A stretch of DNA of 64,000 bases from an uncultured Pirellulales bacterium (lineage in GTDB: Bacteria > Planctomycetota > Phycisphaerae > Sedimentisphaerales > SM23-30). Shown here in pieces: positions 8,890 through 59,380 of this stretch (the stretch's first letter is position 1; every line of letters begins with the position of its first letter). The notes under the pieces are model-generated. The model did not search any database. It was not told where the DNA came from and worked only from the letters and a program-made list of their open reading frames with translations. Where the stretch lies: the NCBI GenBank assembly GCA_964482555.1, contig CAYZXY010000013.1:1225-65224 (forward strand), written 5' to 3'. The position numbers and the translations under genes were made by a program.

Positions 8890-8994
8890 TATACGCGTTC
8901 CGATTGAAAATTCCCGTTTTGCCTAAACGTAGCTATGTGCGGACCAAGTCTTTACGGCTGGCCCTGGCGGGAATTCTCATACCCTTTGGGTATA
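8890..8994 (+). repeat. family-1 interspersed repeat, forward orientation, subfamily with ...GGCCCTGGCGGGAATTCTCATACCCTTTGGGTATA end
   Basis: 105 nt running TATACGCGTTCCGATTGAAAA...GGGTATA. Near-identical 3' half to the copy at 40816-40920. Confidence 0.9.
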
Positions 8995-9044
8995 TTAATG
9001 CCCGGTGCAGTAAGTTGTTCGATTATCTAACCGGCTCATACCAA

Positions 9045-9106
9045 AAAACCGGCCCTGAAATATTTGTTTATACTCATTCCGATGTGTATATCTCGGGGCC
9101 GGTTTT
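9045..9106. terminator. 11-bp inverted repeat (AAAACCGGCCC/GGGCCGGTTTT) between convergent genes; possible bidirectional terminator with an atypically long loop
   Basis: The arms are at 9045-9055 and 9096-9106. A run precedes and a T run follows the arms. The 40-nt loop contains a family-1 5'-end fragment (TATACTCATTCCGATGTG, 9069-9086). Confidence 0.35.
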
Positions 9107-9125
9107 ATATTTGACGTTTTGGCCT

Positions 9126-10694: not shown

Positions 10695-10802
10695 AATGAG
10701 TCTCCTGAATTCCTGTAAATATGTTTCATAACCATTAAACGCTTCCATAATCACTTTGTCTGAATGCATCTGTGTTTTTCTTCCCTGCATAAAAATGAAA
10801 TT

Positions 10803-10880
10803 CATACGGCTTGCGATTGCGTTTTCGCTTATGCGGCTTCTGTTCCGTTTTCACCAATCGTTTTTATACACAATTGGGTA
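10803..10880 (-). repeat. left arm of a 78-nt inverted repeat (family-1 terminal palindrome + AAAA + 58-nt module)
   Basis: Its reverse complement matches 11590-11667. The first 36 nt (CATACGGCTTGCGATTGCGTTTTCGCTTATGCGGCT) match perfectly and the rest at about 80 percent. Confidence 0.9.
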
Positions 10881-10901
10881 AAATTGCCTTCTTTTGATTG
10901 T

Positions 10902-11007
10902 TATACTCGTTCCGATTGAAAATACCCATTTTGTCTTAACGTAATTATTTGCGGATAAAAAAGCTTACGCCCGGCCTTGCCAAGAGCTTTCTACCCAATT
11001 GGCTATA
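10902..11007 (+). repeat. family-1 interspersed repeat, forward orientation
   Basis: TATACTCGTTCCGATTGAAAATACCC...CTACCCAATTGGCTATA. Confidence 0.9.
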
Positions 11008-11164
11008 ACCGCCATTCCCAGAATCCAATTAATGTGCGAACCAGCATCAGAACCAGAAAATATTATAATAACGACAGGCCCGCCGGCACAAGCTTTTTCC
11101 CAACGGAATAAAAATTATCATTGAAATCGGCAATCCGTACGGATAAACATCACAGGCTAATGGT

Positions 11165-11275
11165 TAAATTCGTTCTGGATGAATTTTCCCGTTTTGCATT
11201 TTGCTTAAGCGTAATTACTTGCGGATTAGAAACTTACGATTTATCCTGGCGAGAATGCCCGGCCCTTGGGAGATG
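11165..11275 (+). repeat. family-1 repeat, forward, degenerate, with an internal insertion
   Basis: CGTTCTGGATGAATTTTCCCGTTTTG...AAGCGTAATTACTTGCGGATTAGAAACTTACG...GCCCGGCCCTTGGGAG. Boundaries are approximate. Confidence 0.55.
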
Positions 11276-11494
11276 ATTTAGCCGCATGCGTTTCCTTCGC
11301 CGGCTTCGTATCGGGCATCAGCGCAACCTGGTGCCTCGCCAATGGACCGGTTGCCGGCGAAAACTTCCAGCATCTGGCGGAAGAGACGGAATTGTCGCGG
11401 AACAACATAAGGCGAGTACGCAAAAAAAACCGGTTGACTCGAAAATGGCATATATTCATTATTTGGATTGACATTTATAATAACCCGGTGATAG

Positions 11495-11603
11495 TATATG
11501 ATGTTTGTTTCGATTGAAATTATCCGCTTAATCAGGACGTGATTTCGTGTCGATAATATACTTGCGTCCGGCCCTGCCAGGAGCTTTCGACCCGATTGGG
11601 TAT
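11495..11603 (+). repeat. family-1 repeat, forward, degenerate 5' half
   Basis: ...TTCGATTGAAAT...CTTGCGTCCGGCCCTGCCAGGAGCTTTCGACCCGATTGGGTAT. Its end forms the start of the right inverted-repeat arm. Confidence 0.65.
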
Positions 11604-11667
11604 CAAAAACGATTGGAGAAAACGGGAGAAGAGCCGCATAAGCGAAAACGCAATCGCAAGCCGTATG
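11590..11667 (+). repeat. right arm of the 78-nt inverted repeat (58-nt module pointing at the metal-transporter operon)
   Basis: CGATTGGAGAAAACGGGAGAAGAGCCGCATAAGCGAAAACGCAATCGCAAGCCGTATG. It ends 22 nt before the ATG at 11689. Confidence 0.9.
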
Positions 11668-11688
11668 CAAATAGCGAGTAAACATTAA

Positions 11689-12717: not shown

Positions 12718-12725
12718 AACACGCT

Positions 12726-12814
12726 ATTTACTCCTGGCTGGGACACGCCTGACCGTTTTTTGTGTAAACTGTTATGATTGGAGAAAACGGGGGAACGCAT
12801 TTGGATGCCGTATA
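12726..12814 (+). repeat. family-2 composite repeat (family-1-like half plus a shortened 58-nt module)
   Basis: CTCCTGGCTGGGACACGCCTGACCGTTTTTTGTGTAAACTGTTATGATTGGAGAAAACGGGGGAACGCATTTGGATGCCGTATA aligns with 32331-32453. It ends 2 nt before the ATG at 12816. Confidence 0.7.
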
Positions 12815-12815
12815 A

Positions 12816-13664
12816 ATGGAGAATGAAACCATGGACCCTGTCACTCATACTGAAAATACTATAAACGAACGGCAAACGCCGATCGCAACTTACGAGCATC
12901 ATGATAAATCCTTGCCGCTTACCGTCCACGATCTGACTGTGGCCTACCACCGGAAACCGGTGCTCTGGGATATTGATCTGGATATACCGCAAGGCAAGCT
13001 GGTAGGAATTGTCGGACCAAACGGTGCCGGCAAAAGTACATTGATCAAAGCCTGTCTCGACCTGGCGCCTCGGGCTTCGGGACGGGTGCAGATTTACGGC
13101 AAACCTTATCGTAAACAACGCTCCCTGATTGGTTATGTGCCGCAACGCGAGAGCATTGACTGGGATTTTCCCGTCAGCGCCCTTGATGTTGTCGCGATGG
13201 GGACCTATGGGCGACTGGGCTGGTTTCGTCCGGTTGGACGGAAACAGAAAGACACCGCCTATCAGGCTCTGGACCGACTGGGGATTGCCCATTTGCATGA
13301 CCGGCAGATCAGTCAGCTCTCGGGCGGGCAGCAGCAGCGTGTCTTTCTGGCCCGGGCCCTGGTTCAGGATGCGAAGCTTTACTTCATGGATGAGCCGTTC
13401 GCTGCGGTCGATGCCGCGACGGAGCGAGCGATTGTTACGCTGCTGCAGGAGTTGAAAGATCAGGGGAAAACCTGCCTGGTGGTTCATCATGACCTGGCCA
13501 CCGTGAGCCAGTACTTCGACTGGCTCATCCTCCTGAATATGCGCGTGGTCAAGGTCGGCCCCACCGCGGAGGTCTTTACCCGGGAAAACCTGAAAAACAC
13601 TTATGGCGGTCGGCTAGCTTTCCTGGAAGAAACCGGCGAGGCCCTCCATTTGGAAGACAGGTGA
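12816..13664 (+). CDS. metal ABC transporter ATP-binding protein (TroB/ZnuC/YtgB-like)
   Basis: Walker A GPNGAGKST, signature LSGGQQQR, Walker B LYFMDEP. Confidence 0.9.
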   Translation: MENETMDPVTHTENTINERQTPIATYEHHDKSLPLTVHDLTVAYHRKPVLWDIDLDIPQGKLVGIVGPNGAGKSTLIKACLDLAPRASGRVQIYGKPYRKQRSLIGYVPQRESIDWDFPVSALDVVAMGTYGRLGWFRPVGRKQKDTAYQALDRLGIAHLHDRQISQLSGGQQQRVFLARALVQDAKLYFMDEPFAAVDAATERAIVTLLQELKDQGKTCLVVHHDLATVSQYFDWLILLNMRVVKVGPTAEVFTRENLKNTYGGRLAFLEETGEALHLEDR

Positions 13665-13668
13665 TATT

Positions 13669-16079: not shown

Positions 16080-16277
16080 TTCAGGAAACAGGACAGGCGA
16101 GCACGCCGCCCCACTGAATGAATCCGTCGCTGCATCTCTGGTCTGGTGCACATAACCACAAGGTCTCGTCTTTACGCACACTTAGAGGTGCCCTTAAGCT
16201 TATCTTTACGCTTTACCTCCCCGCGTTTGAGCCAGGTTTACCTCTTTCACGTACGTCCCACCTGACGCATTTCCTGT

Positions 16278-16311
16278 GGCCCTGCCAGGAGTTTTTTACC
16301 CGATCGGGTAT
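16278..16311 (+). repeat. family-1 repeat fragment (3' end only)
   Basis: GGCCCTGCCAGGAGTTTTTTACCCGATCGGGTAT. Confidence 0.6.
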
Positions 16312-16334
16312 GCCCTTTGGTAAGGATGTTCGTG

Positions 16335-17822: not shown

Positions 17823-19172
<1,350 letters not shown>

Positions 19173-20866: not shown

Positions 20867-21039
20867 TCGTAAATTATGGCGTTATAATGCTTTTCTTCAG
20901 AAGCAAACTTTACTATTATATTTTCTGACATTACAATAAATGGTACAAAAAATCATAAATCTTCATCGACAAAAACCCATAAATACACAAATTAGTATAT
21001 GATAATAATATCGGCAGTTATCTGTCCGGATATGAAATC

Positions 21040-21095
21040 TATACCCAATTGGGTAGTAAACTCTCGGCATGGCCGGGCGTAAATGTTTTTCTATA
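21040..21095 (-). repeat. family-1 repeat, reverse orientation, truncated (palindrome end plus hairpin-2 half)
   Basis: TATACCCAATTGGGTAGTAAACTCTCGGCATGGCCGGGCGTAAATGTTTTTC. Confidence 0.7.
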
Positions 21096-22671: not shown

Positions 22672-22776
22672 TATACCCGGTTGGGGAGAAAGCTTCCGGC
22701 AGGGCCGTTCGTAAGCTCTTCATCCGCAGATAATGACGTTCCGACAAAACGGATGTTTTCCATCGGAACGAGTATA
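22672..22776 (-). repeat. family-1 interspersed repeat, reverse orientation
   Basis: TATACCCGGTTGGGGAGAAAGCTTCCGGCAGGGCC...CGTTCCGACAAAACGGATGTTTTCCATCGGAACGAGTATA. Hairpin 1 is a perfect 8 bp. Confidence 0.9.
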
Positions 22777-23444: not shown

Positions 23445-23549
23445 TATGCTAAATCGGGTTGAAAGCTCCGGACAGGGCCGGGCGTAAGCTTTTTATCCGC
23501 AAATAATGACGTTCCGACAAAACGGGTGTTTTTATTCGGAACAAGCATG
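23445..23549 (-). repeat. family-1 interspersed repeat, reverse orientation
   Basis: TATGCTAAATCGGGTTGAAAGCTCCGGACAGGGCCGGGCGTAAGCTTTTTATCCGC...TTCGGAACAAGCAT. Confidence 0.85.
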
Positions 23550-25790: not shown

Positions 25791-25895
25791 TATACTCGTT
25801 CCCATTGAAAAGACCTGTGTTGTCAGAACGTCATTATGTGCGGATACAAAGCTTACGCCCGGCCCGGCCCGGAGCTTGCTGCCCGATTGGGTATA
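25791..25895 (+). repeat. family-1 interspersed repeat, forward orientation
   Basis: TATACTCGTTCCCATTGAAAAGACC...GCTTACGCCCGGCCCGGCCCGGAGCTTGCTGCCCGATTGGGTATA. Confidence 0.9.
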
Positions 25896-25989
25896 TTCTC
25901 AATTATCTGCGCCGATTGTAAACGGTCCGGCCACCCGCGAAAAGAAAAAATATGATGAGCCTGGCCCCCGGAGATGGTATAGTATCTGC

Positions 25990-26154
25990 ATGACGATAGA
26001 AATCACTTTTCTGGGCACGGGCACCAGCCAGGGCATCCCGATGATCGGCTGCGACTGCCAGGTCTGCCGGGCGGACGGGACGGCGTGGCCGAGTGCGTAT
26101 CCGAGTTTTGTGGAGGCGCGGGCGGCGGCGTATAATTTTTGGAGCTGGCAGTGA
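25990..26154 (+). pseudogene. truncated MBL-fold (PhnP-like) hydrolase remnant
   Basis: MTIEITFLGTGTSQGIPMIGCDCQVCR matches the N-terminus of about-250-aa MBL-fold hydrolases. Similarity is lost after about 26068, and the frame stops at 26154. Confidence 0.45.
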
Positions 26155-26463
26155 AGCAGACGCTTGCGTTTTTCGAGCCGGTGTGGTCGCATCTGCTGGA
26201 GAGGTGCGCGGGGACAATGGCGGAGGCGCTGCGGGTGTATATGGGGTTGCGGTATGGGATGAGCCTGGCGGGTCGGGAGCGGTTGAAGGGTACGAGTTGA
26301 AAGTTGGGGGTAATAGGTTATCATGGCAAGTTATAGGTTATAAGGCGGTGGTGCCGATGAAGTCTGGCCCAGATGTGTGACGAGTGATGAGTGACAAGAT
26401 TAAGTTCATTTGTTGGTGTGGGCATGGCCCACACTACTTTTACTTATTTAAGGAAGATATATC

Positions 26464-27153: not shown

Positions 27154-27334
27154 GCTAAGATGGCTGGGTTATATGTGTCGTTGATGTGACATTTGACGCT
27201 GGTTATCAGAGCTTGTGAGTTAATAGGCCATCGAATTTGAGTTTCTGCTGGCTTTTTTAGCTGAAGCTTGAGAGCGAAACCGGCGGCTCCGATAATATAT
27301 ATATATTCATAACCCGTTTTTATAAAACAAGTTA

Positions 27335-27360
27335 CCTCGGGATATTCCCGGGGTTTTTTT
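27335..27360 (+). terminator. strong rho-independent terminator 180 nt downstream of the PPIase gene
   Basis: Stem CCTCGGGA/TCCCGGGG (one G.U pair), loop TAT, followed by 7 T. Confidence 0.7.
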
Positions 27361-30592: not shown

Positions 30593-30696
30593 TATACCCA
30601 TTAGTTAGAAAGCTCCCGGCAGGGCCGGGCGTAAGCTTTTTATCCGCAGATTTATACGTTCCAACTAAACGGGACTTTTCAATCGGAACGAGTATA
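30593..30696 (-). repeat. family-1 interspersed repeat, reverse orientation
   Basis: TATACCCATTAGTTAGAAAGCTCCCGGCAGGGCCGGGCGTAAGCTTTTTATCCGC...CAATCGGAACGAGTATA. Confidence 0.9.
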
Positions 30697-31861: not shown

Positions 31862-31892
31862 AAAAAAAGCCAGTCAAGGCTGGCTGACTGGC
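31862..31892 (-). terminator. rho-independent terminator of the ferredoxin gene
   Basis: The minus strand reads GCCAGTCA-gccagcct-TGACTGGC followed by 7 T. Confidence 0.75.
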
Positions 31893-32330: not shown

Positions 32331-32453
32331 GATCTAATCGAGTGAGAAGCTCCGGGTAGGACCATGCCTAACTGTTTTTTTTATAAGTAATTATGAATGG
32401 AGAAAGCGGGACGCGAAAGCCGCGTAAGCGAAAACTCAATCAGAAGCAGTATA
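32331..32453 (+). repeat. family-2 composite repeat (family-1-like half plus 58-nt module), pointing at proB
   Basis: ...GAGAAGCTCCGGGTAGGACCATGCCTAACTGTTTTTTTTATAAGTAATTATGAATGGAGAAAGCGGGACGCGAAAGCCGCGTAAGCGAAAACTCAATCAGAAGCAGTATA. The module aligns with 11610-11667. Confidence 0.75.
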
Positions 32454-32600
32454 GAATATTTGTCGGCATTGCCTGGAATAAATTAATGATCAATGGTATT
32501 ATTCTGCCGGAAGTGATACGTTTTGAAAAACGATGTTAATCAGTGCCGTCTATGGCTACAATTATTGCCCTGAGTCTTCTGAGATATATATGGCTAATAT

Positions 32601-33692
32601 ATGCGAAATTTCGACAAAATTAAACGAATCGTCATCAAGGTCGGCACCAATGTCCTCAGCAGGAACACGGGTGTCGATACCGATTTCATCGGTGTGATTG
32701 CCAGCCAGATTGCCGGGCTGGTCCAGGAGGGCAGGCAGGTCATCCTCGTTACCAGCGGCGCCGTTGGTATGGGCGCCGGGGCCCTGGGTCTGAAAAAGCA
32801 GCTTACCGAGATCAAAATGCGACAGGCATGCGCCGCCGTGGGCCAGGGGATTCTGATGCGGGAATACCAGGACGCCTTCAAACAATACGGCCAGACCGTT
32901 GCCCAGGTCCTGCTTACCAACCGTATCATGAGCTACCGAAAAAACTACGTCAACCTCAAAAATGCCGTCGAAACCCTCCTCAAGCTCAACGTTGTCCCCA
33001 TCGTCAACGAAAACGATTGCGTCTCCATCGAAGAAATCGACCTGGCCTTCGGCGACAATGACCGTCTCTCTGCCCTGGTCGCCTCAAAAATTGACGCCGA
33101 ACTGCTGATCGTCCTGACCGACGTCGCCGGTCTCTACAACGGCAATCCTCGCGAAAATCCCGATGCCAGGCTGCTTTCCGTCGTGCATGAAATTACGCCG
33201 GAGATTGAGGTCATGGCAGGTAAGCCCGGCTCGAAATACAGTACCGGCGGTATGGCCGCCAAGCTCAAGGCGATCCAGATCGCCGCCAACTCCGGCTGCC
33301 GGGTGGTTCTCGCTGACGGTCGTCGCAAGAATATCATTAATGACATCGTCGCCGGCGAAGACATCGGCACGCTTTTTCTGCCCAAACGCCGTCTCAGCAA
33401 CCGTAAACGCTGGATACTCAACAGCCTGCCGCAGGGCCGACTCGAAATCGACCCCGGCGCCGTGAACGCGCTGCTCAACAAAAAATCCCTCCTTCAGGTC
33501 GGCATCACCGACGTCATAGGCGACTTCCGACCCGGCGACGTCATCGAAATCGGTACCGTTGCCAAAGGCGTCACCCGGCTCGCCGCCCGCGACATCCGCC
33601 GCTTCCTCGACGACAAACTGAACAACAGCCACACCCCCGAAGCCAAACGCCAGGTCGCCGTCCATATCGACCACATCGTTCTGTATGTTTAA
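32601..33692 (+). CDS. proB: glutamate 5-kinase with PUA domain
   Basis: VIKVGTNVLS N-terminus, amino-acid kinase fold motifs, and a C-terminal PUA region (GDVIEI). Confidence 0.9.
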   Translation: MRNFDKIKRIVIKVGTNVLSRNTGVDTDFIGVIASQIAGLVQEGRQVILVTSGAVGMGAGALGLKKQLTEIKMRQACAAVGQGILMREYQDAFKQYGQTVAQVLLTNRIMSYRKNYVNLKNAVETLLKLNVVPIVNENDCVSIEEIDLAFGDNDRLSALVASKIDAELLIVLTDVAGLYNGNPRENPDARLLSVVHEITPEIEVMAGKPGSKYSTGGMAAKLKAIQIAANSGCRVVLADGRRKNIINDIVAGEDIGTLFLPKRRLSNRKRWILNSLPQGRLEIDPGAVNALLNKKSLLQVGITDVIGDFRPGDVIEIGTVAKGVTRLAARDIRRFLDDKLNNSHTPEAKRQVAVHIDHIVLYV

Positions 33693-35425: not shown

Positions 35426-36542
35426 TCTCCTCGTTCGTCAGATTATCGCTGCCTTCCATCCCCGCAAACAACGCCAATGCCTTTCCATACAACAGTTTAT
35501 CAACAGCAGTTTTCCGGTGGATAAACTTATCGAAAAATGCCACCGATCGCAATGCATACAAATCGCGATGCACCAGCGTCGATTGATTGTGTTTGGCCTC
35601 CGGTGCCATCCAGAGATACCGCGGCGGCCGCGCCGCCTCATACAGCAGTTTCGCCTGATCCGGCCGGATATACGAATCCCGCGCGCCGTGGATAAAAAAT
35701 GTCGGCGTATCTTTCAGCTTCATAAGTGCTTTACGCGCCGAAAGAAACCGGCAATGAAACCGCCGCCACGCGACCTGCAACAGCAGCCACCGCAAAAACC
35801 GCCAGAACACCGGCGGATGATTTTCATACACAAATCGCACCCTCGCGAAGATATGCACCCACCGTTTCATAAACATTTCCAGCGTCGTATCATTGGAAAA
35901 CGCGCTGTCCGCCAGCACCGCCTTTACCAGTCCCGCTGAAAAGGGGCTGTCCGCCGCCAGAATTGCTGCACCCGCCCCCCGCGAAATCCCGAACATCCCG
36001 ATCTGAACGTCTAGTTCCCGCTCCCGAAACTGATCGTTCACATATGCCAGCGCCCCCAGGCAATCCGCCACCTCATGATTCGTGCACCACAAGCGCGGAG
36101 CATAATCCGGCAGCGATTCGCTTTTACCATGGGAGCGAAAATCGAAGGCAAAAATATCGTACCCCGCTCTCAGCAGCGGCATGCAATACCGCGACCAACT
36201 GTACATGTCGGCGTTGTACTCGTGACAAAAGATAATGACGCCTTTGGAATCCCCCTTCAGTATCGGTGCGTTGTTATCGAAATACAGCACATCACCTTGA
36301 TCCTTGATCATTGCCGGCGACAGAAACATTCCTCGCAGCCGCGTCCCGTCAAACGCCCGGAACTGGACTATATGGCCTTCCAGTTTCTGCTGATGTCGCA
36401 ACCCCAGAAAAGGCGGCGTATCCCGAAAAATATTCAGCATCAAACGGACATATTTCGCCAGAACCGCAACGATCCATAAGACCGTCAATACCGCCGCCAG
36501 GCCGCACAGCACAGGCCAGTAATGGAGCAATAACTGGATCAT
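35271..36542 (-). CDS. membrane-anchored alpha/beta hydrolase
   Basis: N-terminal TM helix. Nucleophile elbow GISRG. Starts 21 nt after the KS stop. Its 3' 155 nt overlap the GH3 start. Confidence 0.75.
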   Translation of the reverse strand: MIQLLLHYWPVLCGLAAVLTVLWIVAVLAKYVRLMLNIFRDTPPFLGLRHQQKLEGHIVQFRAFDGTRLRGMFLSPAMIKDQGDVLYFDNNAPILKGDSKGVIIFCHEYNADMYSWSRYCMPLLRAGYDIFAFDFRSHGKSESLPDYAPRLWCTNHEVADCLGALAYVNDQFRERELDVQIGMFGISRGAGAAILAADSPFSAGLVKAVLADSAFSNDTTLEMFMKRWVHIFARVRFVYENHPPVFWRFLRWLLLQVAWRRFHCRFLSARKALMKLKDTPTFFIHGARDSYIRPDQAKLLYEAARPPRYLWMAPEAKHNQSTLVHRDLYALRSVAFFDKFIHRKTAVDKLLYGKALALFAGMEGSDNLTNEENGVSYYEDKQVVQQQMAQTGGAAHRPYRRTQRPEATRSLSEKTSPMPPRPE

Positions 36543-36563: not shown

Positions 36564-37892
36564 TTAATGTTGTTCAGGTAATTGACGTATGATGATTGTA
36601 TTATTCTGACCGCCAAAGCCAAACGAATTCGACATCACCGTTTTCAACAGCGCCGGGCGCGGTTCATTGGGTACATAGTCCAGATCGCATACTTCATCCG
36701 GCTGATGCAGATTGATAGTGGGTGGAATAACCTGATCTCGCAACGCCAGAACGCATGTTATCAGCTCGACCACGCCCGCCGCCGCGATCAGATGCCCCAG
36801 CATGCTCTTAACGCTGCTCACGGGAATATTATACGCCTGCTCGCCGAAAACGTCTTTAATCACCTTTGTCTCTATCGAATCGTTCTCCGCTGTTCCGGTT
36901 CCGTGAGCGCTGATATAATCGATATCCGTAATATCCAGACCCGCGTCCGCCAGTGCCTGCCGAACAGCTGCGATACCGCCGCGCCCCTCAATATGTTGAT
37001 CGGTTACCCGAAAAGCGTCGGCGGTACTGCCGTATCCGATCACCTCTGCCAGAATCGGCGCTCCCCGCTTCCGGGCCGTTTCGTAATCCTCCAGTATGAT
37101 AGCCCCGGCGCCCTCCGCCAGCACGAATCCATCCCGCGTCCGGTCAAACGGCCGCGATGACGTTTTGTAGTCGTCATTACGGGTCGACAGGGCGGTCAAA
37201 CGGTTAAACCCCGTTACCCCCAGCGGATGGATCATCGAATGCGTCCCCCCCGTAATCATGATATCCGTGTCGCCGTAACGAATCTGCTCCGTCGCCTCCC
37301 CGATCGCCTGCGTACTCGCCGCACAGGCCGTCAGACAACTCATACAGGGCCCGCGCAACTGAAACAGACGCGCCAGATAGCCGCTGGGTATATTCGGTTC
37401 CTGCTCCAGTTCCCGCCGCATGTCCATCCCCGAAAACGCGGTAGTCGCCCATGCCCCCCAGTCCATCTCATTTTCATCCGTATTCCACCCATCTATTGCC
37501 GCCTGCGAAAACGCCTTAAAATCTAACGGACCCTCCCCGGCGCCAAGATAAACGCCCACCCGGTCGCTGCCGGGAATCCTATTGGTTTGAGTTGCAGACA
37601 TCGGCATGGGCAGTCCCGCCTGGCGCCATGCCTGCAATGCCGCTGTAATTATAAACCGCGAATTGCGACCCGCCTGGCGAACTTCATCATGCAGATTCTC
37701 CGGTACGTTTTCGAGATGATCGTAATCCGCCACCTGCGCTGAAAACTGCGATGGAAATGTCCTCGCGTCGAACAGCTTCGTTAAAGATACTCCGCTTTCA
37801 CCGCTCAGCAATTTCCGCCAAACCTCATCAATGTCTCTTCCCAGCGGTGTCACCGCACCCATTCCCGTTATCACAACACGTCGTTTATCCAT
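36564..37892 (-). CDS. beta-ketoacyl-ACP synthase (KAS I/II-type, intact Cys-His-His triad)
   Basis: CLTACAAS (Cys), SAHGTGT (His), KSMLGHLIAAAG (His). Confidence 0.9.
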   Translation of the reverse strand: MDKRRVVITGMGAVTPLGRDIDEVWRKLLSGESGVSLTKLFDARTFPSQFSAQVADYDHLENVPENLHDEVRQAGRNSRFIITAALQAWRQAGLPMPMSATQTNRIPGSDRVGVYLGAGEGPLDFKAFSQAAIDGWNTDENEMDWGAWATTAFSGMDMRRELEQEPNIPSGYLARLFQLRGPCMSCLTACAASTQAIGEATEQIRYGDTDIMITGGTHSMIHPLGVTGFNRLTALSTRNDDYKTSSRPFDRTRDGFVLAEGAGAIILEDYETARKRGAPILAEVIGYGSTADAFRVTDQHIEGRGGIAAVRQALADAGLDITDIDYISAHGTGTAENDSIETKVIKDVFGEQAYNIPVSSVKSMLGHLIAAAGVVELITCVLALRDQVIPPTINLHQPDEVCDLDYVPNEPRPALLKTVMSNSFGFGGQNNTIIIRQLPEQH

Positions 37893-37908: not shown

Positions 37909-37999
37909 AACTTTCGTATTTTTTTGATAACGCTTCGGCGTTCCGCAGGGCCATTTAAGCCCGACAGTATTATTCATTTTCGGATAAGTGATCGAAAAT
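37909..37999 (+). repeat. family-3 repeat in the 5' leader of the KS gene
   Basis: AACTTTCGTATTTTTTTGATAACGCTTCGGCGTTCCGCAGGGCCATTTAAGCCCGACAGTATTATTCATTTTCGGATAAGTGATCGAAAAT aligns along its whole length with 40064-40155. Confidence 0.85.
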
Positions 38000-38025: not shown

Positions 38026-38129
38026 TACACACGTTGCGATTGAAAATACGCGTTTTTTCAGAAGTAATTGTGTGCGAATAAAAAGCTTACACCCGGCTCA
38101 GCCCGGAGCTCTCTACCCGGTTGGGTATA
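38026..38129 (+). repeat. family-1 interspersed repeat, forward on + strand (reverse-sense relative to the minus-strand operon); overlaps the 3' end of the KS-like gene
   Basis: TACACACGTTGCGATTGAAAATACGCG...GAGCTCTCTACCCGGTTGGGTATA. The terminal palindrome encodes VYPTG-stop of the CDS 38113-39441. Confidence 0.9.
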
Positions 38130-39441
38130 CTTTTTTCAATACCATTGCCGCTGTTTGACCGCCGAAGGTTGTACTGGTGCATAAGGCATAGTTTAAGGTC
38201 AGTCCTTCGCGATGTTCCCGGACGATATTCAGACCAGGTCCGTTTTCAGGATGGGGGCAGTTCAGGGTTGCCGGAATGACACCGTGTTTCAATGCCAGCG
38301 CCGCCGTGACCATATCGATCGCGCTCGAACCGGCGCCGCAATTACCGATCCGACTTTTGGTCGCACAAACCGGCAGTTTACTCGTATAATCGCCGAAAAC
38401 CGATTGGATTGCCGTCGCTTCGCTCCGATCGGCGCTCGGTATGCCTAACCCGTGCGGAATAAGCAGGTCGATATTGTCAGGATTGATTTCCGCAGAGGCC
38501 AGCGCCTTATGCATGGCCGTCGCGATACCCTTGCCGTCCGGTTCCGGAGACAAGAAATCCTTCCCAAAACAGCAGGATGCACCAAAACCGACCACTTCCG
38601 CGTAAATAGACGCCCCCCTTTTTGTCGCACGTTCGTATTCTTCCAGAATAAAAATTCCCGCTCCGTCGCCGGCAACCGTTCCATCCGCGTCCCGGTCGAA
38701 AGGTCGGCAGGCTTCTTTGGGGTGGTCGTTATACTTCGTACTGGCCTGCTTGTAGAAATATTGTCGCAGCAAATTCATCGGATTGACTTTATTTTCTCCG
38801 CCGCCCGCGACCATGATATCCGCCTTGCCGTGAGCGATGGTTTTGTAAGCCTCGCCGATTGCCAGCGTGCCTGAAACATCCGCGTTTGTTATGGAATTAC
38901 TCGGGCCTTGAAAATCATGAATAATCGTGATATGGCAACTGAGCATATTCGGCAGATATTTCAACAACCACAAGGGCGTCAAACTCTGCATTCCCTCGCG
39001 ACCCCAGTGTTCAAGACTGAATCGGTCCCCGTCTTTCGAAAGACTAAGAGCCGTTGCCAGTTCCGGCAGGTCGCAGCAGATCTGCCCCGCTCCGATATTG
39101 ACCCCGCAGCGGGTTGGTTCAATATCAATCTCGCCGTTCGTACTCGTTCCTTTTGTTCGAAGACCCGCATCCCGGATGGCGCCGTCCGCCGCTACCACCG
39201 ATAGGGCGATATCGTGCGACATCAGCTTTGTCATTTTTCGGTGTGTTTTAGGGACATAGGCAGACATTTTGAATTCCGGGGTCTCGCCGCCGATCCGGCT
39301 GGGGAAACCTGATGCGTCAAACCGTTTGATCGGCTCGATTCCGATTTGCCCGTTCAGCAGGGCCTGAAGATAGTCATCTTTTGTCAGACCCAGAGCGTTA
39401 ACGATGCCTGTTCCGGTTATTACTACTCGGCGTTCAGCCAT
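38113..39441 (-). CDS. ketosynthase-like protein lacking the catalytic Cys (chain-length-factor / KS-beta-like partner)
   Basis: Aligned by eye with the neighbouring KS. TACAAS becomes NADVSG (Cys to Asp). HGTGT becomes HGLGI (His kept). GHLIAAAG becomes GNCGAGSS (His to Asn). Confidence 0.8.
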   Translation of the reverse strand: MAERRVVITGTGIVNALGLTKDDYLQALLNGQIGIEPIKRFDASGFPSRIGGETPEFKMSAYVPKTHRKMTKLMSHDIALSVVAADGAIRDAGLRTKGTSTNGEIDIEPTRCGVNIGAGQICCDLPELATALSLSKDGDRFSLEHWGREGMQSLTPLWLLKYLPNMLSCHITIIHDFQGPSNSITNADVSGTLAIGEAYKTIAHGKADIMVAGGGENKVNPMNLLRQYFYKQASTKYNDHPKEACRPFDRDADGTVAGDGAGIFILEEYERATKRGASIYAEVVGFGASCCFGKDFLSPEPDGKGIATAMHKALASAEINPDNIDLLIPHGLGIPSADRSEATAIQSVFGDYTSKLPVCATKSRIGNCGAGSSAIDMVTAALALKHGVIPATLNCPHPENGPGLNIVREHREGLTLNYALCTSTTFGGQTAAMVLKKVYPTG

Positions 39442-39460: not shown

Positions 39461-39565
39461 TATCCTCGCTCTGAGTGATATTATCCGTTTTGTCAGAACG
39501 TAATTATGTGCGGATAAAAAACTTGCGCCCGGTCCTGCCGGGAGCTTTCTACCCGATGGGGTATA
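39461..39565 (+). repeat. family-1 interspersed repeat, forward on + strand; overlaps the 3' end of the dehydratase gene and lies 20 nt upstream of the KS-like start
   Basis: TATCCTCGCTCTGAGTGATATTATCCGTTTTGTCAGAACGTAATTATGTGCGGATAAAAAACTTGCGCCCGGTCCTGCCGGGAGCTTTCTACCCGATGGGGTATA. It encodes VYPIG-stop of the CDS 39549-40037. Confidence 0.9.
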
Positions 39566-40037
39566 CTTTGCCACCCGGAATATAACTTTTCAACAGCGTC
39601 ATAAAATTCGCATTAAACACGAAGTTTTCTTCCGGGAACTCCAGGCCCGCCATGTTCCGGTCGATATGACTGAACATCATGTTGATCTCCGCGATGAGTT
39701 TATCGCCGCAGCGTATCTCGCCGCTGATGGTTGCCGCTTCTTCGGCGATATTCTCAATGGTCGCTTCCAGGAAGAGTTGATCTCCCGGCCGAACAATATG
39801 ATGAAAAACGGCTTGGGCGATTTTGGCCAGAATGACCTTTTCCTTAAAGCCCCGGGCATGGCCGACCAGGATGCCGCCCGTCTGGGCCATAGCTTCAATC
39901 ATCAGCGAAGCGGGCATAATCGGGTACCCTGGAAAATGATCGTGCAGATGCTCTTCCGCCATGGTGACATTCTTGACGGAAACCGCTCGCTTGTCCGGTT
40001 CAAATTCTATAAATTTATCGATCCAAATCCACCGCAT
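39549..40037 (-). CDS. FabZ/FabA-like hotdog-fold beta-hydroxyacyl-ACP dehydratase
   Basis: HLHDHFPGYPIMPASLMIEAMAQTGG (catalytic His and Glu context). Confidence 0.85.
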   Translation of the reverse strand: MRWIWIDKFIEFEPDKRAVSVKNVTMAEEHLHDHFPGYPIMPASLMIEAMAQTGGILVGHARGFKEKVILAKIAQAVFHHIVRPGDQLFLEATIENIAEEAATISGEIRCGDKLIAEINMMFSHIDRNMAGLEFPEENFVFNANFMTLLKSYIPGGKVYPIG

Positions 40038-40063: not shown

Positions 40064-40155
40064 ACTTTCGCTTTTTTTGTGAGCGTTTTGCTGTTCCGCA
40101 GGGCCTTTTAAGCCCGATGATATTATTGATGACTTTCGAATAAGTGATCGAATAT
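40064..40155 (+). repeat. family-3 repeat in the 5' leader of the dehydratase gene
   Basis: TACTTTCGCTTTTTTTGTGAGCGTTTTGCTGTTCCGCAGGGCCTTTTAAGCCCGATGATATTATTGATGACTTTCGAATAAGTGATCGAATAT. Confidence 0.85.
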
Positions 40156-40815: not shown

Positions 40816-40920
40816 GATACGCGTTCCGATTGGTAATTCCCGTTTTGTCCAAGCGTAACTATGTGCGGACAAAGCCTTTACAACTGGCCCTGGCGGGAAT
40901 TCTCATACCCTTTGGGTATA
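40816..40920 (+). repeat. family-1 interspersed repeat, forward on + strand, same subfamily as 8890-8994
   Basis: GATACGCGTTCCGATTGGTAATTCCCGTTTTGTCCAAGCGTAACTATGTGCGGACAAAGCCTTTACAACTGGCCCTGGCGGGAATTCTCATACCCTTTGGGTATA. Confidence 0.9.
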
Positions 40921-43223: not shown

Positions 43224-43330
43224 TATACGGCTTCCGAGTGAGTTTCTCCGTTTTCTCCAACCATAACTGCTTACAAAGAAAACGGTTAGGCATTGACTTG
43301 TCCGGAGGTTTCTATCCGCTTGGGCAGATA
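43224..43330 (+). repeat. family-1 repeat, forward, degenerate
   Basis: TATACGGCTTCCGAGTGAGTTTCTCCGTTTTCTCCAACCATAACTGCTTAC...GGAGGTTTCTATCCGCTTGGGCAGATA. Confidence 0.6.
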
Positions 43331-45326: not shown

Positions 45327-45354
45327 AGGAATCCGATAAGCGATTCCTTTTTTT
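45327..45354 (+). terminator. rho-independent terminator after tRNA-Ser
   Basis: AGGAATC-N8-GATTCCT followed by a T run. Confidence 0.7.
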
Positions 45355-50261: not shown

Positions 50262-50365
50262 TCCACCCAATTGAGTAGAAAGCTTCTGGCTGAGCCGGGT
50301 GTAAGCTTTTTATACGCACATAATTACGTTCCGATAAAAGAGATATTTCAATCGGAACGAGTATA
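50262..50365 (-). repeat. family-1 interspersed repeat, reverse orientation
   Basis: TCCACCCAATTGAGTAGAAAGCTTCTGGCTGAGCCGGGTGTAAGCTTTTTATACGCACATAATTACGTTCCGATAAAAGAGATATTTCAATCGGAACGAGTATA. Hairpin 1 is perfect. Confidence 0.9.
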
Positions 50366-50444
50366 AAAGGAGTGTGAGGATTCCCGCCAGAACCAATCGG
50401 GAAAACGCTGTTTGAATGCGTATGAATTCGTTAAGGCAGGTTAT

Positions 50445-51584: not shown

Positions 51585-51613
51585 GCGAAAGGTGAACGAG
51601 AGGTAAATACTCA

Positions 51614-52060
51614 ATGAAAGTAGCAATTGGCGGCGATCACAGAGGTTATGAAGCTAAGGAACTGATTAAAAGCATTCTGCAGCGCAACGGCCATGAGGTG
51701 GAAGACTATGGTACGAATGAATCGAAAAGCTGCGATTACCCGGATTTTGCTATTCCTGTTGCCCTGGCTGTAGCACGCAATGAAGTTGACAGCGGTATTT
51801 TAATCTGCGGCAGCGGTATCGGTATGTCGATTACCGCGAATAAGGTCAGGGGGGTGCGGGCGGCCCTTTGTCATGATGAATTGACGGCACAAATGGCCCG
51901 TACGCATAATGACGCGAATATTTTATGTCTGCCTGCCATGCTGGTGAACGATCCGTTGATTACCCGGATTGTGGAAACGTGGCTCTCGACGGAATTCGGC
52001 GGCGGTCGCCATCAACGCCGGGTAAGCAAGATGATGGAAGCAGAAAGCATTGAGCCATAA
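51614..52060 (+). CDS. rpiB: ribose-5-phosphate isomerase B
   Basis: MKVAIGGDHRGYE and CGSGIGMSITANK motifs. Confidence 0.9.
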   Translation: MKVAIGGDHRGYEAKELIKSILQRNGHEVEDYGTNESKSCDYPDFAIPVALAVARNEVDSGILICGSGIGMSITANKVRGVRAALCHDELTAQMARTHNDANILCLPAMLVNDPLITRIVETWLSTEFGGGRHQRRVSKMMEAESIEP

Positions 52061-52079
52061 AGGGCCAATGCCTGACGCA

Positions 52080-53975: not shown

Positions 53976-54321
53976 AAACCTCCCTAAGCATTTTTTGTTT
54001 TTTTACCTCTTTTAATCATATATACATAGTATTAAAGAATTTACAAGTTAATATTCCAGAAAGAAGGGCGGTGGAGGCCAGTTTTTATAAAAAAAAAAGA
54101 GAAAAAATGATATTAGACGGCCCACATTATTTGCCAAAAATAAAAACCATGGTATAATTCATGTAGATGTTAAAGCCGATGAGTTTTAAGTAACAATGTA
54201 CAGCCAGTCTGGGATCGAGAGAGAGAGTGGACATATACATTTGTTAAGCGAAAAGGATGAAGGGCGCGAACGGCTTTAACATAAAGTGTCGGATGGGCTG
54301 GATACGGGAAGACAAGCAATC

Positions 54322-54426
54322 TATGCACGTACCGCTTGAAAATGCCCGTTTTGTCGGAACGTAATTATCTGCGGATATATATCTTACGCCCGGCCCTGCC
54401 GGGAGCGTTCTACCCCATTGGGTAGA
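54322..54426 (+). repeat. family-1 interspersed repeat, forward on + strand
   Basis: TATGCACGTACCGCTTGAAAATGCCCGTTTTGTCGGAACGTAATTATCTGCGGATATATATCTTACGCCCGGCCCTGCCGGGAGCGTTCTACCCCATTGGGTAGA. Confidence 0.9.
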
Positions 54427-54676
54427 AAAGCGGTTATTTTTATAAGCGTTTGCGCAATTTCTAAAACCTTGTTTACGCCGCATTCAGCGGCATTCTGTCG
54501 GGAAAAATAAGATTGTTGACGATCATTTGCCCCGGGGTTTTCTACTGAACCCCGGGGCTGTTTCTATTAGTCCCTGCGAGTCTTTTCCCAAAACGGGAAG
54601 TGGTTGTCTTTCTCATTCATTAAGTCCCGCATTTAATTAAAAATGCGGGCTAAACTTAATTGTCCCTTACGGGATT

Positions 54677-54780
54677 TATACGCGTTCCGATAGAAAATAC
54701 CTGTTTTTCGGAACGTAATTATGTGCGTATAAAAAGCTTACGCCCGGCCTTGCCGGGAGCTTTCTACCCAATGGGGTAGA
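54677..54780 (+). repeat. family-1 interspersed repeat, forward on + strand
   Basis: TATACGCGTTCCGATAGAAAATACCTGTTTTTCGGAACGTAATTATGTGCGTATAAAAAGCTTACGCCCGGCCTTGCCGGGAGCTTTCTACCCAATGGGGTAGA. Confidence 0.9.
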
Positions 54781-54856
54781 AACGACAATGAGAACGTTAA
54801 AGCCAAAGTTTAATTTCTGAGTTCTGTGAATGCTAACTCTATATTTATGAACGCGT

Positions 54857-56737: not shown

Positions 56738-56793
56738 GATTATTCATAACTCCATAATGGTCAAAGGTTTATTGCTGATTCAATTCGTCCGCT

Positions 56794-58887
56794 TTAGATG
56801 TTTCGCAGAGTGATTCGGGCATCTGCCGCGACCGCATCGCTGCCGATCGGCCCAACGATGAAGGGGTTGATATCCATTTCCGCAATCTGGGGGAAATCGG
56901 TTACCATCTGGCTCATTCGCTGAATACCTTCCGCCAGGGCTTCCACATCCACGCCCGCCTGACCGCGAACGCCTTTGAGCAAGGCGAACGATCGCGTCGT
57001 TTGCAGCATCTGCAAGGCTTCGCGTGAGGTGATGGGGGCCAGATGGAAAGTGACGTCTTTCATCACTTCTACGAAAATGCCGCCCAGACCGAACATCAGC
57101 ATCGGACCGAACTGCGGATCGCGTGTCATACCGATAATTACCTCGCGGCCCCGCTTGCACATTTTTTCAACGTAAACACCTTCGAGCCTGGCGTCCGGCA
57201 CTCTCTGGCCGATGCGAATCATCATCAGATCAAAAGCGTCGCGGACGGCATCCGCACCGCCGAGGTTCAGTTTAACCCCGCCCAGATCCGACTTGTGCAG
57301 AATCTGAGGGGATACGATTTTCATCGCTACCGGAAAACCGATGCGTTCGGCGATATCTACCGCTTCGTCCGCGGTGGTGGCCAGACTGCCCGGCGGGACG
57401 TTGAAGTTGTAGGCCCGCAGGATTTCTTTAGCTTTCACCTCGCCGACTTGAAAGCGGCTGGAACGGATATGACGGGAAATAATGCGTTCGACACGGCGGC
57501 GATTGACCGGAAAACGCGTAACAATGCGCGGCGGACGATGACGCCAGTTGGAATAATCCACCATCGACTTGAGCGCCATGACGGCCCGTTCTGGCGAAGG
57601 ATAATCGGGGATTTTCAGTTCTATAAGAGCCTTGCGGCCGGGAATGACATCTTCCCCGCCCATGAAACAGGCCAGAATCGGCTTGCTGCCGTCGGACTGA
57701 TCGGCAATGGCCTGGGCGGTTTCGACCGGTTTGGTCATGGCCTGCGGCGTGAGAATCAGTATAATCGCATCGACCATGGTGTCTTTTTGAGCCGCTTGCA
57801 ACGCCAGGATATAGCGGTCTTCTTCGGCGTCGCCCAGCACGTCGATCGGATTGCCGACGCTGGCCGCGGCCGGCAACTGGCCTTTGAGCTCTTCAGCAAT
57901 GCTCTGGGTAAGGCTGGTTACGACCATTCCGGAGTTTTCCACGGCATCGGCGCACATGATGCCCGGGCCGCCGGCGTTGGTGATAATGGCGACGTTATTG
58001 CCTTTGGGAAGCGGCTGCATTGAGAAGGCCGTCGCGTAATCGAACAGGGCTTCAAAGGTATCTGCCCGTATAACCCCGGAACGCATGAACGCGGCGCCGT
58101 AAGCGATATCCGCTCCCGCCAGACTGCCGGTATGCGACGATGCGGCTTTCGTGCCCGCTTCGGTAGTACCTGCCTTGAGGATGATAACCGGTTTTTTGGC
58201 GGAGGAGGTTTCGGCAATTTTGACGAACTCGTCGCCGGACATGATGCTTTCCAGATAGCCGACAATGACGTCGGTTTCATCGTCTTTGGCGAAGGCTTCC
58301 AGAAAATCGTTTTCGTTCAAATCGGCTTTATTACCGATACTGAGCAGTTTGCCCAGTCCCAGATGCCGACCGGCCGCCCAGTCCAGTACCGCCGTCGCCA
58401 GTGCGCCGGACTGGGAAATAACGGAAATATTACCCGGCGTCGGCATCTTGGCGGCAAACGAAGCATTCATATTATTATGAGTGTTAATCAGGCCGAGACA
58501 GTTGGGTCCCATGAGCCGCGCGCCTTGAGAACGACAGTATGCGGCTAATTCCTCCTCCAGTTTAGCACCCTCCTGGCCTACTTCCTTAAAGCCGGCGGTG
58601 ATGACTACCAGGGATTGAGCGCCGGCCTTGATTGAACTTTCAGCGGCCGCTTTGACAAATTTAGTGGGTACGGAAATGACGCTTAGATCGATTTTGCCGT
58701 CGAATTCACTTAAATTGGGGTAACATTTCAGGCCGAGGATCTCATCCGCGGTAGGATTAACGGGAATAATCTTTCCGGAAAATCCGCCTTTGATAAGATT
58801 AGCGACAATTTCATGACCAACCTTCCCGGGAGTACGGGAAGCGCCAATAACAGCTACAATTTCAGGCTTAAAAAGGGACTCTAACAT
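56794..58887 (-). CDS. ADP-forming acetyl-CoA synthetase family protein (CoA-binding + ligase-CoA + ATP-grasp)
   Basis: VAVIGASRTPGKVG CoA-binding loop, SQSGA and GNPID motifs, and a C-terminal ATP-grasp region. Confidence 0.85.
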   Translation of the reverse strand: MLESLFKPEIVAVIGASRTPGKVGHEIVANLIKGGFSGKIIPVNPTADEILGLKCYPNLSEFDGKIDLSVISVPTKFVKAAAESSIKAGAQSLVVITAGFKEVGQEGAKLEEELAAYCRSQGARLMGPNCLGLINTHNNMNASFAAKMPTPGNISVISQSGALATAVLDWAAGRHLGLGKLLSIGNKADLNENDFLEAFAKDDETDVIVGYLESIMSGDEFVKIAETSSAKKPVIILKAGTTEAGTKAASSHTGSLAGADIAYGAAFMRSGVIRADTFEALFDYATAFSMQPLPKGNNVAIITNAGGPGIMCADAVENSGMVVTSLTQSIAEELKGQLPAAASVGNPIDVLGDAEEDRYILALQAAQKDTMVDAIILILTPQAMTKPVETAQAIADQSDGSKPILACFMGGEDVIPGRKALIELKIPDYPSPERAVMALKSMVDYSNWRHRPPRIVTRFPVNRRRVERIISRHIRSSRFQVGEVKAKEILRAYNFNVPPGSLATTADEAVDIAERIGFPVAMKIVSPQILHKSDLGGVKLNLGGADAVRDAFDLMMIRIGQRVPDARLEGVYVEKMCKRGREVIIGMTRDPQFGPMLMFGLGGIFVEVMKDVTFHLAPITSREALQMLQTTRSFALLKGVRGQAGVDVEALAEGIQRMSQMVTDFPQIAEMDINPFIVGPIGSDAVAADARITLRNI

Positions 58888-59295
58888 AAAATATCCTTAA
58901 CTCAACTAGTGGTAACAACTTATAAAATAATTCGTTAAGCAGCGATTCGTTCGCATAACAGTGTGAATGACGGACACTCATAAACCTTATCGACTTTTTA
59001 CAGAGCCAAGTATTTATCTAGTTTCAACATTTTAAAGATTCCTTCAAGTGTTTTTTAAACAGTTAGTTAAAAAAAGTATATATCACAATTACTCATTTAT
59101 TGCATTAAGAGGGGCAACGATATATTTCATTGCATTGTTTGCAGTTACGTGTTAGAAATGTTAATCTGATAAAAGACAGGTTTCGATAACATCAGAAAAA
59201 GACTGACAACAGCTATGGAGAGAATGTATCTATACACAATTGACAAAATAAATTATCTCTGGTAAAAGAGAGTCTTTACGGGGCAGGGTGGTCGC

Positions 59296-59380
59296 CAGAG
59301 GTGAAATCCCGGTGATGAAGCGTAATTGTCATAATAATTTCGAATGGCCCTGCCGGAAATAATCATACCCTGAGGGTATA
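59296..59380 (+). repeat. family-1 repeat, forward, truncated/degenerate (A/M subfamily end)
   Basis: ...GTGAAATCCCGGTGATGAAGCGTAATTGTCATAATAATTTCGAATGGCCCTGCCGGAAATAATCATACCCTGAGGGTATA. Confidence 0.55.

Follow-up and report, generated by a model that had tools for sequence, protein, structure and literature searches.

Results

A repeat family between ordinary genes

The stretch of DNA analyzed here (the window) comprises 64,000 nucleotides of an uncultured planctomycete genome, deposited as a Pirellulales bacterium and assigned by GTDB to the Sedimentisphaerales of the class Phycisphaerae (GenBank assembly GCA_964482555.1, contig CAYZXY010000013.1, positions 1,225 to 65,224 of the forward strand). 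According to a Pfam-supported gene map, it contains ~48 ordinary genes and two tRNAs. Among the genes are those for glycosidases, a Znu transporter, enolase, glucose-6-phosphate dehydrogenase (G6PD), a two-component system, a fatty-acid-synthesis-like cluster, and methionine/folate enzymes. Between them lie numerous copies of a repeat element of 104-111 bp, which was noticed in a preliminary description of the same DNA that listed 15 near-full-length copies and five fragments.

A profile hidden Markov model (HMM) was built from the 15 listed copies and run across the window using nhmmer. All 15 were recovered exactly where they had been placed, with E-values ranging from 2.5e-35 to 2.5e-19. 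Two copies that had been overlooked, 32336-32459 and 12731-12817, were also detected (E 1.4e-9 and 1e-7, respectively). Three of the five fragments were significant, as 21036-21089, 16277-16311, and 59317-59385, while the remaining two, 9069-9086 and 10865-10880, were not (E 3.5 and 2.6). In total, 20 significant copies or remnants were found in the 64 kb, 15 of them full-length and five partial or degenerate (Table 1). Short strings taken from the element were similarly abundant: the 16-mer CGTTCCGATTGAAAAT, with up to three mismatches allowed, occurred 13 times against 1.07 occurrences expected from shuffled sequences, and the palindrome TACCCNNNNGGGTA, with up to one mismatch, occurred 11 times against 1.06 expected.

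Copies and remnants cover ~1.95 kb of the 10.5 kb of intergenic DNA (~19%). The preliminary description placed them outside coding sequences or at their extreme 3′ edges, and indeed all are intergenic, save for 17-nt overlaps with a KAS gene (38113-39441) and a FabA-like gene (39549-40037). Both of these genes run into a copy in the same frame and stop at the TAG of the element, and their protein products end in …K-V-Y-P-(T/I)-G-stop. The statement that most intergenic spacers are occupied was too strong, as only 17 of 49 spacers contain a copy or remnant (15 of the 23 spacers that are at least 150 nt long). Occupancy was highest in divergent spacers (6/8) and was lower in co-directional (9/32) and convergent (2/9) ones. 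Pfam scans of the window genes revealed no transposase, as reported initially, and no integrase or Y1 enzyme either.

Inverted ends and subfamilies

Written on the strand that most often serves as sense strand for the flanking genes (the reverse complement of the consensus given in the preliminary description), the consensus of the element reads TATACCCAATTGGGTAGAAAGCTCCCGGCAGGGCCGGGCGTAAGCTTTTTATCCGCACATAATTACGTTCCGACAAAACGGGTATTTTCAATCGGAACGAGTATA(AAT). The ends had been described as a 5-nt terminal inverted repeat, but proved to be an in-register, imperfect inverted repeat of 27 bp. When the first 27 nucleotides of the consensus were compared with the reverse complement of the last 27, 17 positions matched in register (p 2e-4, by shuffling), and the inverted ends were individually significant (p<0.05) in 10 of 14 copies. 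Two blocks within the ends are conserved, TATACnC on the outer side and GA(A/G)AnnnCCCG on the inner side. A two-block layout of this kind is typical of ends that are recognized by transposases.

The subfamily proposed for the 8890 and 40816 copies does exist: the two are 90% identical to each other and only 64-72% identical to the remaining copies. In this subfamily (subfamily B), hairpins 1 and 2 of the core have been lost, and the inner block of the inverted ends has been kept and even improved (18 of 27 end positions matching, 11 of 12 in the inner block). Other variants are shared as well. The 38026 and 50262 copies have a hairpin-2 variant in common, the 54322 and 54677 copies form another pair, and TC replaces TA at one end of the 54322, 54677, and 50262 copies. 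Identity to the consensus varies from 65 to 92%, with most copies at 87-92%, and pairwise identity within the main family is 73-88%; outside subfamily B, no pair is closer than 88%. We read these diverged, roughly equidistant sequences as pointing to spread in a burst, followed by decay.

Hairpin modules and their variation

The three hairpin modules recognized earlier are present in the consensus, and the best-preserved copy, 54677-54780, in which every proposed pair can form, has a folding z-score of -5.5 on either strand. The idea that variation among the copies preserves this structure, however, was not upheld. Pairing was evaluated for the three hairpins and an inner A/U helix (29 pairs, 14 copies), and the 3′ partners were shuffled 500 times. 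Stem cells were paired in 80.6% of cases, compared with 80.3% ± 0.6 after shuffling, and 152 of the 500 shuffles equaled or exceeded the observed value. Restricting the comparison to the ten main-family copies gave the same picture (88.9% observed, 88.6% shuffled, p 0.41). Double changes were seen in 5 cells, with 3.2 ± 1.6 expected. The compensatory C-G to U-A change pointed out earlier in the 39461 copy is real, but overall G.U-preserving and compensatory changes are at chance level, with no excess. Mismatches comprised 19 G.U and 20 A.C combinations, and therefore neither strand is favored as RNA. RNAalifold predicted only 7 pairs for one strand and 3 for the opposite one; the covariation terms were positive (unfavorable). 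Several copies folded no better than shuffled sequences (z about -2).

Searches against Rfam led in the same direction. At gathering thresholds, only the two tRNAs of the window matched, and nothing was found at the repeat; at E<=10, no convincing overlap with any copy was observed, the best being a chance microRNA match with E 1.3. The possibility that hairpin 2 is domain V of a group II intron was dropped, since Rfam gives it no support. The hairpins are probably traits of the founding sequences that have not been upheld copy by copy, and we regard this as part of the best explanation of the family as a whole.

Putative insertion sites and occurrence elsewhere

In a Sedimentisphaerales relative (L083), genes for G6PD, metallophosphatase, PPIase, response regulator, HDOD kinase, GAF, and ferredoxin are syntenic with those of the window, and no copy of the element is present. 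The spacer between the kinase and GAF genes measures 271 nt with the element in the window and 53 nt without it in the relative. The relative is a distant one, its G6PD being 64% identical to that of the window. In the protein collection, the G6PD of the window has a single exact match, from an NCBI contig of 68,291 nt and a Logan assembly of SRR7048221, and the next homologue is only 66% identical; the reads of the source genome belong to runs SRR7048221, SRR7048223, and SRR7048224. The preliminary description considered that the ends could include a duplicated TA target. This was not borne out, as no copy-specific excess of direct repeats was detected at any offset for lengths of 2-8 nt, and only the constant TA/TATA was found at the ends. 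Insertion into pre-existing hairpin loops was considered and dropped, because inverted repeats flanking the copies are no longer than in controls. A Logan contig (L081, from the assembly of SRR7048221) breaks inside the 23445 copy, as is expected for a multi-copy repeat in short-read assembly.

Outside the window, few further copies turned up. The exact 25-mer GCCGGGYGTAAGCTTTTTATNCGCA, which matches five window copies, was absent from 185,579 species-representative genomes and from JGI metagenomes, and neither JGI metagenomes nor IMG/VR viral contigs contained a match to a degenerate pattern of 51 letters, which fits 7 of 14 copies. A blastn search of plasmids and phages with the best copy gave no match, and an HMM scan of 82 loci from other genomes (80 G6PD loci, together with L082 and L083) revealed no copy. 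Profiles of the translated frames of the element, searched against 5.8 billion and 1.84 billion proteins, matched just three spurious open reading frames (ORFs). One (P0126, 99 aa) is an NCBI ORF that covers the 8890 copy of the window itself, another (P0122, 52 aa) comes from Logan contigs L084-L086, which belong to three runs of a single accession series that includes the source run, and the third (P0121, 85 aa) comes from a 12.9-kb NCBI contig of unverified origin. On each strand, one frame is open across the full consensus, and these ORFs are spurious read-throughs. No record was found for the exact proteins of the fucosidase, OMP, and ACP ORFs or of P0121.

Contig L084, which shares its Logan sample with the source, contains one full copy in a co-directional spacer, with the same polarity as in the window. 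A second, truncated copy stands at the start of the contig; 35 nt separate it from the first ATG of a plus-strand ORF whose translation looks sulfatase-like by eye. The repeat ORF that encodes P0122 is located in region 3650-3808 of this contig. All three Logan samples carry the L084 copy. A literature search found no paper that refers to the sequencing runs or to such repeats in Sedimentisphaerales. The family looks confined to this lineage, whose nearest named relatives are Sedimentisphaerales.

Strand polarity relative to flanking genes

In co-directional spacers of the window, the sense strand is the reverse complement of the initially reported consensus in nine of ten copies, or in eight of nine spacers. 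With L084 added, the numbers become 10/11 copies (two-sided binomial p 0.012) or 9/10 spacers (p 0.02). The exception, the 25791 copy, shares its 720-nt spacer with a decayed gene fragment. Over ~50 kb, the element changes orientation eight times, following the local direction of the genes, and the bias is therefore one of transcription and not of replication. A replication-strand bias was dropped for this reason, GC skew also following the gene strand. The polarity, which is absent from the preliminary description, is the only hint of an effect at the transcript level.

When the element is read along the sense strand, the GC-rich, bulged hairpin 2 (core stem down to -13 kcal/mol, with a 4-nt bulge) is followed by TTTTTAT. 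The 8 nt that follow hairpin 2 contain 6-7 T in 8 of 14 copies, compared with 3-5 on the other strand. Canonical terminators, with a hairpin and a T-run, are found elsewhere in the window (for example, 27334-27354, 31869-31892, and 45327-45348). The other end of the element is TATAAA-like (…GAGTATAAAT, …TTTTCAATCGGAACGAGTATAAAT, or …GTATAAAT) and points to a gene's 5′ end in both L084 cases and in 14 of the 17 occupied spacers. In copies that have this end intact, the start codon is mostly 19 to ~175 nt away. A σ70 promoter contained within the element was dropped as a candidate, since there is no consistent -35/-10 pair, and only two copies give hybrid promoter-like matches.

Individual copies and neighboring features

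Coordinates and contexts of the copies are collected in Table 1.

Table 1. Copies and remnants of the repeat element in the window. The strand is the one that bears the consensus of the preliminary description.
Feature	Position	Strand	Context	Evidence
Full copy, subfamily B	8890..8994	+	Convergent spacer, arabinofuranosidase/fucosidase	nhmmer E 6.5e-31; 90% identity with 40816 copy
Possible ends-only mini-derivative TATACTCATTCCGATGTGTATA	9069..9090	+		Read by eye; nhmmer not significant, E 3.5
Possible lone terminal palindrome TATACACAATTGGGTA	10865..10880	+		One mismatch to TACCCNNNNGGGTA; nhmmer not significant, E 2.6
Full copy, first of three in spacer	10902..11007	+	Divergent spacer, fucosidase/ZnuA	E 3.1e-33; 91% to consensus
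Degenerate full-length copy, 7-nt insertion	11165..11275	+		nhmmer E 2.5e-19
Diverged full-length copy	11495..11603	+		nhmmer E 4.3e-27; 78% to consensus
Partial copy	12731..12817	-	ZnuA/ABC ATPase genes (co-directional, +)	E 1e-7; HMM positions 8-94
Fragment with palindrome end	16277..16311	+	24 nt past LysM gene stop	E 2.9e-5; exact TACCCGATCGGGTA
Half copy (palindrome and hairpin 2)	21036..21089	-	Divergent spacer, upstream of UDPGP gene	E 4.8e-11; exact TACCCAATTGGGTA
Full copy	22672..22776	-	UDPGP/OMP genes (both +)	nhmmer E 2.1e-33
Full copy	23445..23549	-	OMP/G6PD genes (both +)	nhmmer E 2.3e-33; Logan contig L081 breaks within
Full copy, sole opposite-polarity copy	25791..25895	+	Metallophosphatase/PPIase genes (both +)	nhmmer E 7.6e-34
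Full copy	30593..30696	-	HDOD histidine kinase/GAF genes (both +)	nhmmer E 1.1e-32
Degenerate copy	32336..32459	-	Divergent spacer, ferredoxin/ProB	nhmmer E 1.4e-9
Full copy, provides KAS TAG stop	38026..38129	+	KAS/FabF genes (both -)	nhmmer E 1.7e-30
Full copy, provides FabA-like TAG stop	39461..39565	+	FabA-like/KAS genes (both -); KAS ATG 19 nt away	E 6.7e-35
Full copy, subfamily B	40816..40920	+	FabA-like/ACP genes (both -)	nhmmer E 5.2e-30
Oldest-looking full-length copy	43224..43330	+	Divergent spacer	nhmmer E 6.2e-23; 65% to consensus
Full copy	50262..50365	-	Divergent spacer, HAD/Sua5; 46 nt before Sua5 ORF	nhmmer E 3.9e-30
Full copy, TCTACCC/GGGTAGA-end variant	54322..54426	+	AcCoA-hydrolase/MetH-MTHFR genes (both -)	nhmmer E 1.3e-34
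Best-preserved copy	54677..54780	+		E 2.5e-35; 92% to consensus; 29/29 proposed pairs intact
Partial copy, subfamily-B-like end	59317..59385	+	Divergent spacer	nhmmer E 3.9e-5

Several of the occupied spacers have features of their own. At 9047-9098, between convergent genes, TATACTCATTCCGATGTGTATA is situated between the complementary arms of an apparent bidirectional terminator, AAAAAACCGGCCC … GGGGCCGGTTTTAT. The KAS and FabA-like genes are unrelated, and both junctions with the element (38113-38129 and 39549-39565, respectively) read AAAG-TATACCC, the hyphen marking the point of junction. The metallophosphatase and PPIase genes are separated by 720 nt in the window and by only 142 nt in the syntenic relative L083. 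In the window, their spacer contains at 25990-26154 (+) a remnant that resembles, by eye, the N-terminus of a metallo-β-lactamase-fold gene (MTIEITFLGTGTSQGIPMIGCDCQVCRADG…); on the other strand, a 141-aa ORF (25899-26324) is without a Pfam match and probably spurious.

The 54322 and 54677 copies share an 881-nt spacer with two further features. At 54131-54158 (+) lies the best σ70-like site of the window (TTGCCA, a 16-nt spacing, and TG-TATAAT; 11/12 matches). Approximately 370 nt downstream of this site, at 54529-54558, a perfect 12-bp GC-rich hairpin is followed by TGTTTCTATT. Judging from this arrangement, an unannotated small transcript may read through the 54322 copy.

A second, unrelated repeat of ~85 nt is present in the fatty-acid-synthesis-like cluster, in two window copies (37919-37999 and 40072-40155) that are ~80% identical and have no Rfam match. 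It contains TCGGGCTTAAATGGCCCTGCGGAAC on the gene strand, and FabF (36564-37892) and the FabA-like gene (39549-40037) each have one copy just upstream. The ~85-nt repeat may represent a leader or operator common to the cluster. Nearby, the listed ORFs for GH3 (33689-35425) and an α/β hydrolase (35271-36542), both on the minus strand, overlap by 155 nt (35271-35425), and the listed upstream start codon of GH3 is probably too early.

Discussion

The repeats are best accounted for as a lineage-restricted, non-autonomous family of the MITE type (miniature inverted-repeat transposable elements), ~105 bp long and non-coding, with imperfect 27-bp inverted ends and a hairpin-forming core. We put the probability of this reading at roughly two in three. 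Bacterial MITEs are defined as non-coding elements of 70-300 bp with inverted ends of 15-30 bp (PMC3733652, PMC10969869). The family resembles them in its length of 105 bp, its lack of coding capacity, its ~27-bp inverted ends, its many dispersed intergenic copies, its subfamilies, the ability of its transcripts to form hairpins, and its restriction to a single lineage. It differs from them in that no target duplication was detected, the ends are weak (63-67%), and no parent insertion sequence is known. Among the three origins envisaged in the preliminary description, which were a MITE, a REP/RAYT-like element, and a transcribed RNA module, the MITE is the best supported, while the argument for an RNA module fails, with pairing at chance level, two hairpins lost in subfamily B, and no Rfam match.

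The following scenario is proposed. The element would have colonized the spacers of a single uncultured Phycisphaerae genome, presumably with the help of a transposase whose gene lies elsewhere in that genome, and its copies would since have decayed without detectable compensatory change. Insertions may have been filtered by a polar effect on transcription, exerted by a terminator-like or 3′-end-stabilizing activity, the survivors sharing one polarity. Such an effect on transcripts is put forward tentatively, and we give it somewhat less than an even chance.

A number of observations weigh against the MITE reading or against the polar effect attached to it. The arms of the inverted ends agree at only ~63-67% of positions, the one syntenic relative compared is too distant to provide a true empty site, and no autonomous partner or transposase was seen in the window that was scanned. 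The absence of a detectable target duplication fits HUH-type mobilization as well as it fits a classical MITE. Three copies share TC in place of TA at one end, which suggests that those bases belong to the element, and a TA duplication is doubtful. Stem columns are more conserved than unpaired columns (92% and 85%, respectively, p 0.009), and a weak constraint on the stems is possible. This gap mostly reflects loop differences among sub-lineages, and a higher conservation of stems is also the expected pattern if stems mattered in the founder copies that propagated. As for the polar effect, the polarity count is small (n = 11 copies), and a simple terminator scan of the window did not call hairpin 2. 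The preference of the element for divergent over convergent spacers is the opposite of what is seen with terminator-like repeats such as SPRITE, and the position of the 39461 copy, 19 nt before a start codon in a probable operon, is awkward for an efficient terminator.

Mobilization could have been of the DDE type, as for a MITE with a fixed short target, or of the HUH type, acting on single strands. The latter alternative, in which a tyrosine transposase of the REP/REPIN-RAYT or TIRYT kind would move the element as hairpins of single-stranded DNA without target duplication, we consider unlikely. It would account for an element that consists wholly of adjacent hairpins and whose best copy folds equally well on either strand (z -5.5), for the GTAG found in the consensus directly before the GC-rich bulged hairpin, for the lack of a detectable target duplication in window copies, and for the left-end TC variant, which is common to three copies and so was inherited with the element. 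REP families and families with terminal inverted repeats, both tied to tyrosine transposases, have also been reported in the planctomycete R. baltica (PMC3733652). REP, BIME, and REPIN-RAYT elements, which are known in Planctomycetes, are, like the family described here, hairpin-rich extragenic repeats found after genes. In them, GTAG lies beside a GC-rich imperfect hairpin, as it does in the consensus here, and they leave no target duplication, none having been detected here either. However, the 105-nt unit is 3-5 times the REP length and lies well beyond the 20-40 bp of a REP unit; its arms are 63-67% alike, and not near-identical as in the near-perfect REPIN hairpin; GTAG is inconsistent, as only 6 of 14 copies have it and it is confined to one arm; and the window contains no RAYT or other Y1 transposase gene. 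By the criteria of unit size and arm identity, the family falls outside REP/REPIN.

If, alternatively, the repeats were transcribed and selected RNA modules (attenuators, stabilizers, processing sites, or small RNAs), the three hairpins should be maintained in each copy. Polarity relative to transcription in 10/11 copies, the slightly higher conservation of stem columns than of loop columns, the folding of the best copy far beyond its shuffled versions, and the compensatory C-G to U-A change of the 39461 copy agree with this view. Yet pairing is no better than with shuffled partners, double changes (5, with 3.2 ± 1.6 expected) show no clear surplus, G.U and A.C mismatches are equally frequent, and the 7 and 3 pairs called by RNAalifold carry unfavorable covariation terms. 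In addition, subfamily B is devoid of hairpins 1 and 2, several copies have z-scores of about -2, no Rfam family is found at E<=10, and all spacer types, convergent ones included, are occupied. We regard the RNA module as very improbable. Whatever moved the element, it might instead have been recruited to punctuate genes, with an upstream half that terminates or stabilizes one transcript and a downstream end (…TTTTCAATCGGAACGAGTATAAAT) that helps to start transcription of the next gene. The polarity in co-directional spacers, the T-tract on the sense strand, the facing of gene 5′ ends by the TATAAA-like end (14 of 17 occupied spacers and both L084 cases), and the two hybrid promoter-like matches, in which TTTTCA of the element serves as the -35 box, are consistent with such a role, and Correia elements are documented suppliers of promoters (PMC10969869). 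We nevertheless find it doubtful, as an acceptable -35 box is missing at 16-18 nt from the TATAAA end, TTTTCA is not followed downstream by a consistent -10 box (the scan scores only two copies), divergent and convergent spacers are uninformative on polarity, and the end shows no stronger conservation than the rest. A mobile, polar punctuation module, which would be moved as single-stranded hairpins by an HUH enzyme without target duplication, kept only where it ends or stabilizes the upstream transcript, and would then hand over to the next gene, is an improbable combination. Finally, imperfect palindromes of ~100 nt just after genes and with a fixed polarity recall the attC-like recombination sites that mark integron gene cassettes, but the genes that flank them are housekeeping ones (G6PD, enolase, fatty-acid synthesis), gene order is conserved in a relative without the element, many copies are in divergent spacers, no GTTRRRY core was seen by eye, and the window has no integrase gene. 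The attC identity was rejected on gene context (syntenic housekeeping genes), and we give it practically no credence.

By analogy with known repeats, the MITE-type family described here appears to work most like the Correia/NEMIS elements of Neisseria, which are also dense, close to genes, and able to affect transcripts. The likeness extends to length (~100-150 bp), a very dense intergenic distribution, and frequent placement just upstream of genes. The inverted ends of Correia elements are of comparable length, ~26 bp, and begin with TATA as well, and their insertion is accompanied by a TA duplication. The host phyla are unrelated, the resemblance is one of description, and the TA duplication, the IHF site, and the cleavage by RNase III that are documented in Neisseria could not be demonstrated here. 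Correia/NEMIS elements are co-transcribed with neighboring genes, and can affect promoters, termination, and RNA processing (PMC10969869).

MIRU and ERIC elements are likewise intergenic repeats inside transcription units, and their effect depends on how they are oriented relative to the transcript. Their hosts are unrelated, and the family described here has neither the small bridging ORFs of MIRU nor the long whole-element hairpin of ERIC. SPRITE is a small interspersed repeat that is predicted to fold into a stem with a U-rich tract after it, is found near gene ends, and has been proposed to have a co-opted terminator role (PMC3049150). It shares with the present family the stem followed by a U-rich tract, the proximity to gene ends, and the lack of a recognized target duplication. 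In contrast, SPRITE is strongly enriched between convergent genes and has 4-nt inverted ends, whereas the present family occupies 2/9 convergent and 6/8 divergent spacers.

The repeats thus add a new MITE-like family to a phylum in which few such elements have been described, and do not represent a new kind of system. They also have practical effects: short-read assemblies are broken, spurious proteins enter databases, and the last codons and stop of two genes have been rewritten. Because the family makes up ~19% of intergenic DNA, breaks assemblies, generates spurious proteins, and alters stops, it should be masked by annotators of Phycisphaerae metagenome-assembled genomes. If the punctuation reading were true, a selfish element would have turned into a usual gene boundary in this planctomycete lineage. 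From the polarity of the copies, it could be learned how small mobile elements are filtered by selection according to their effects on transcripts.

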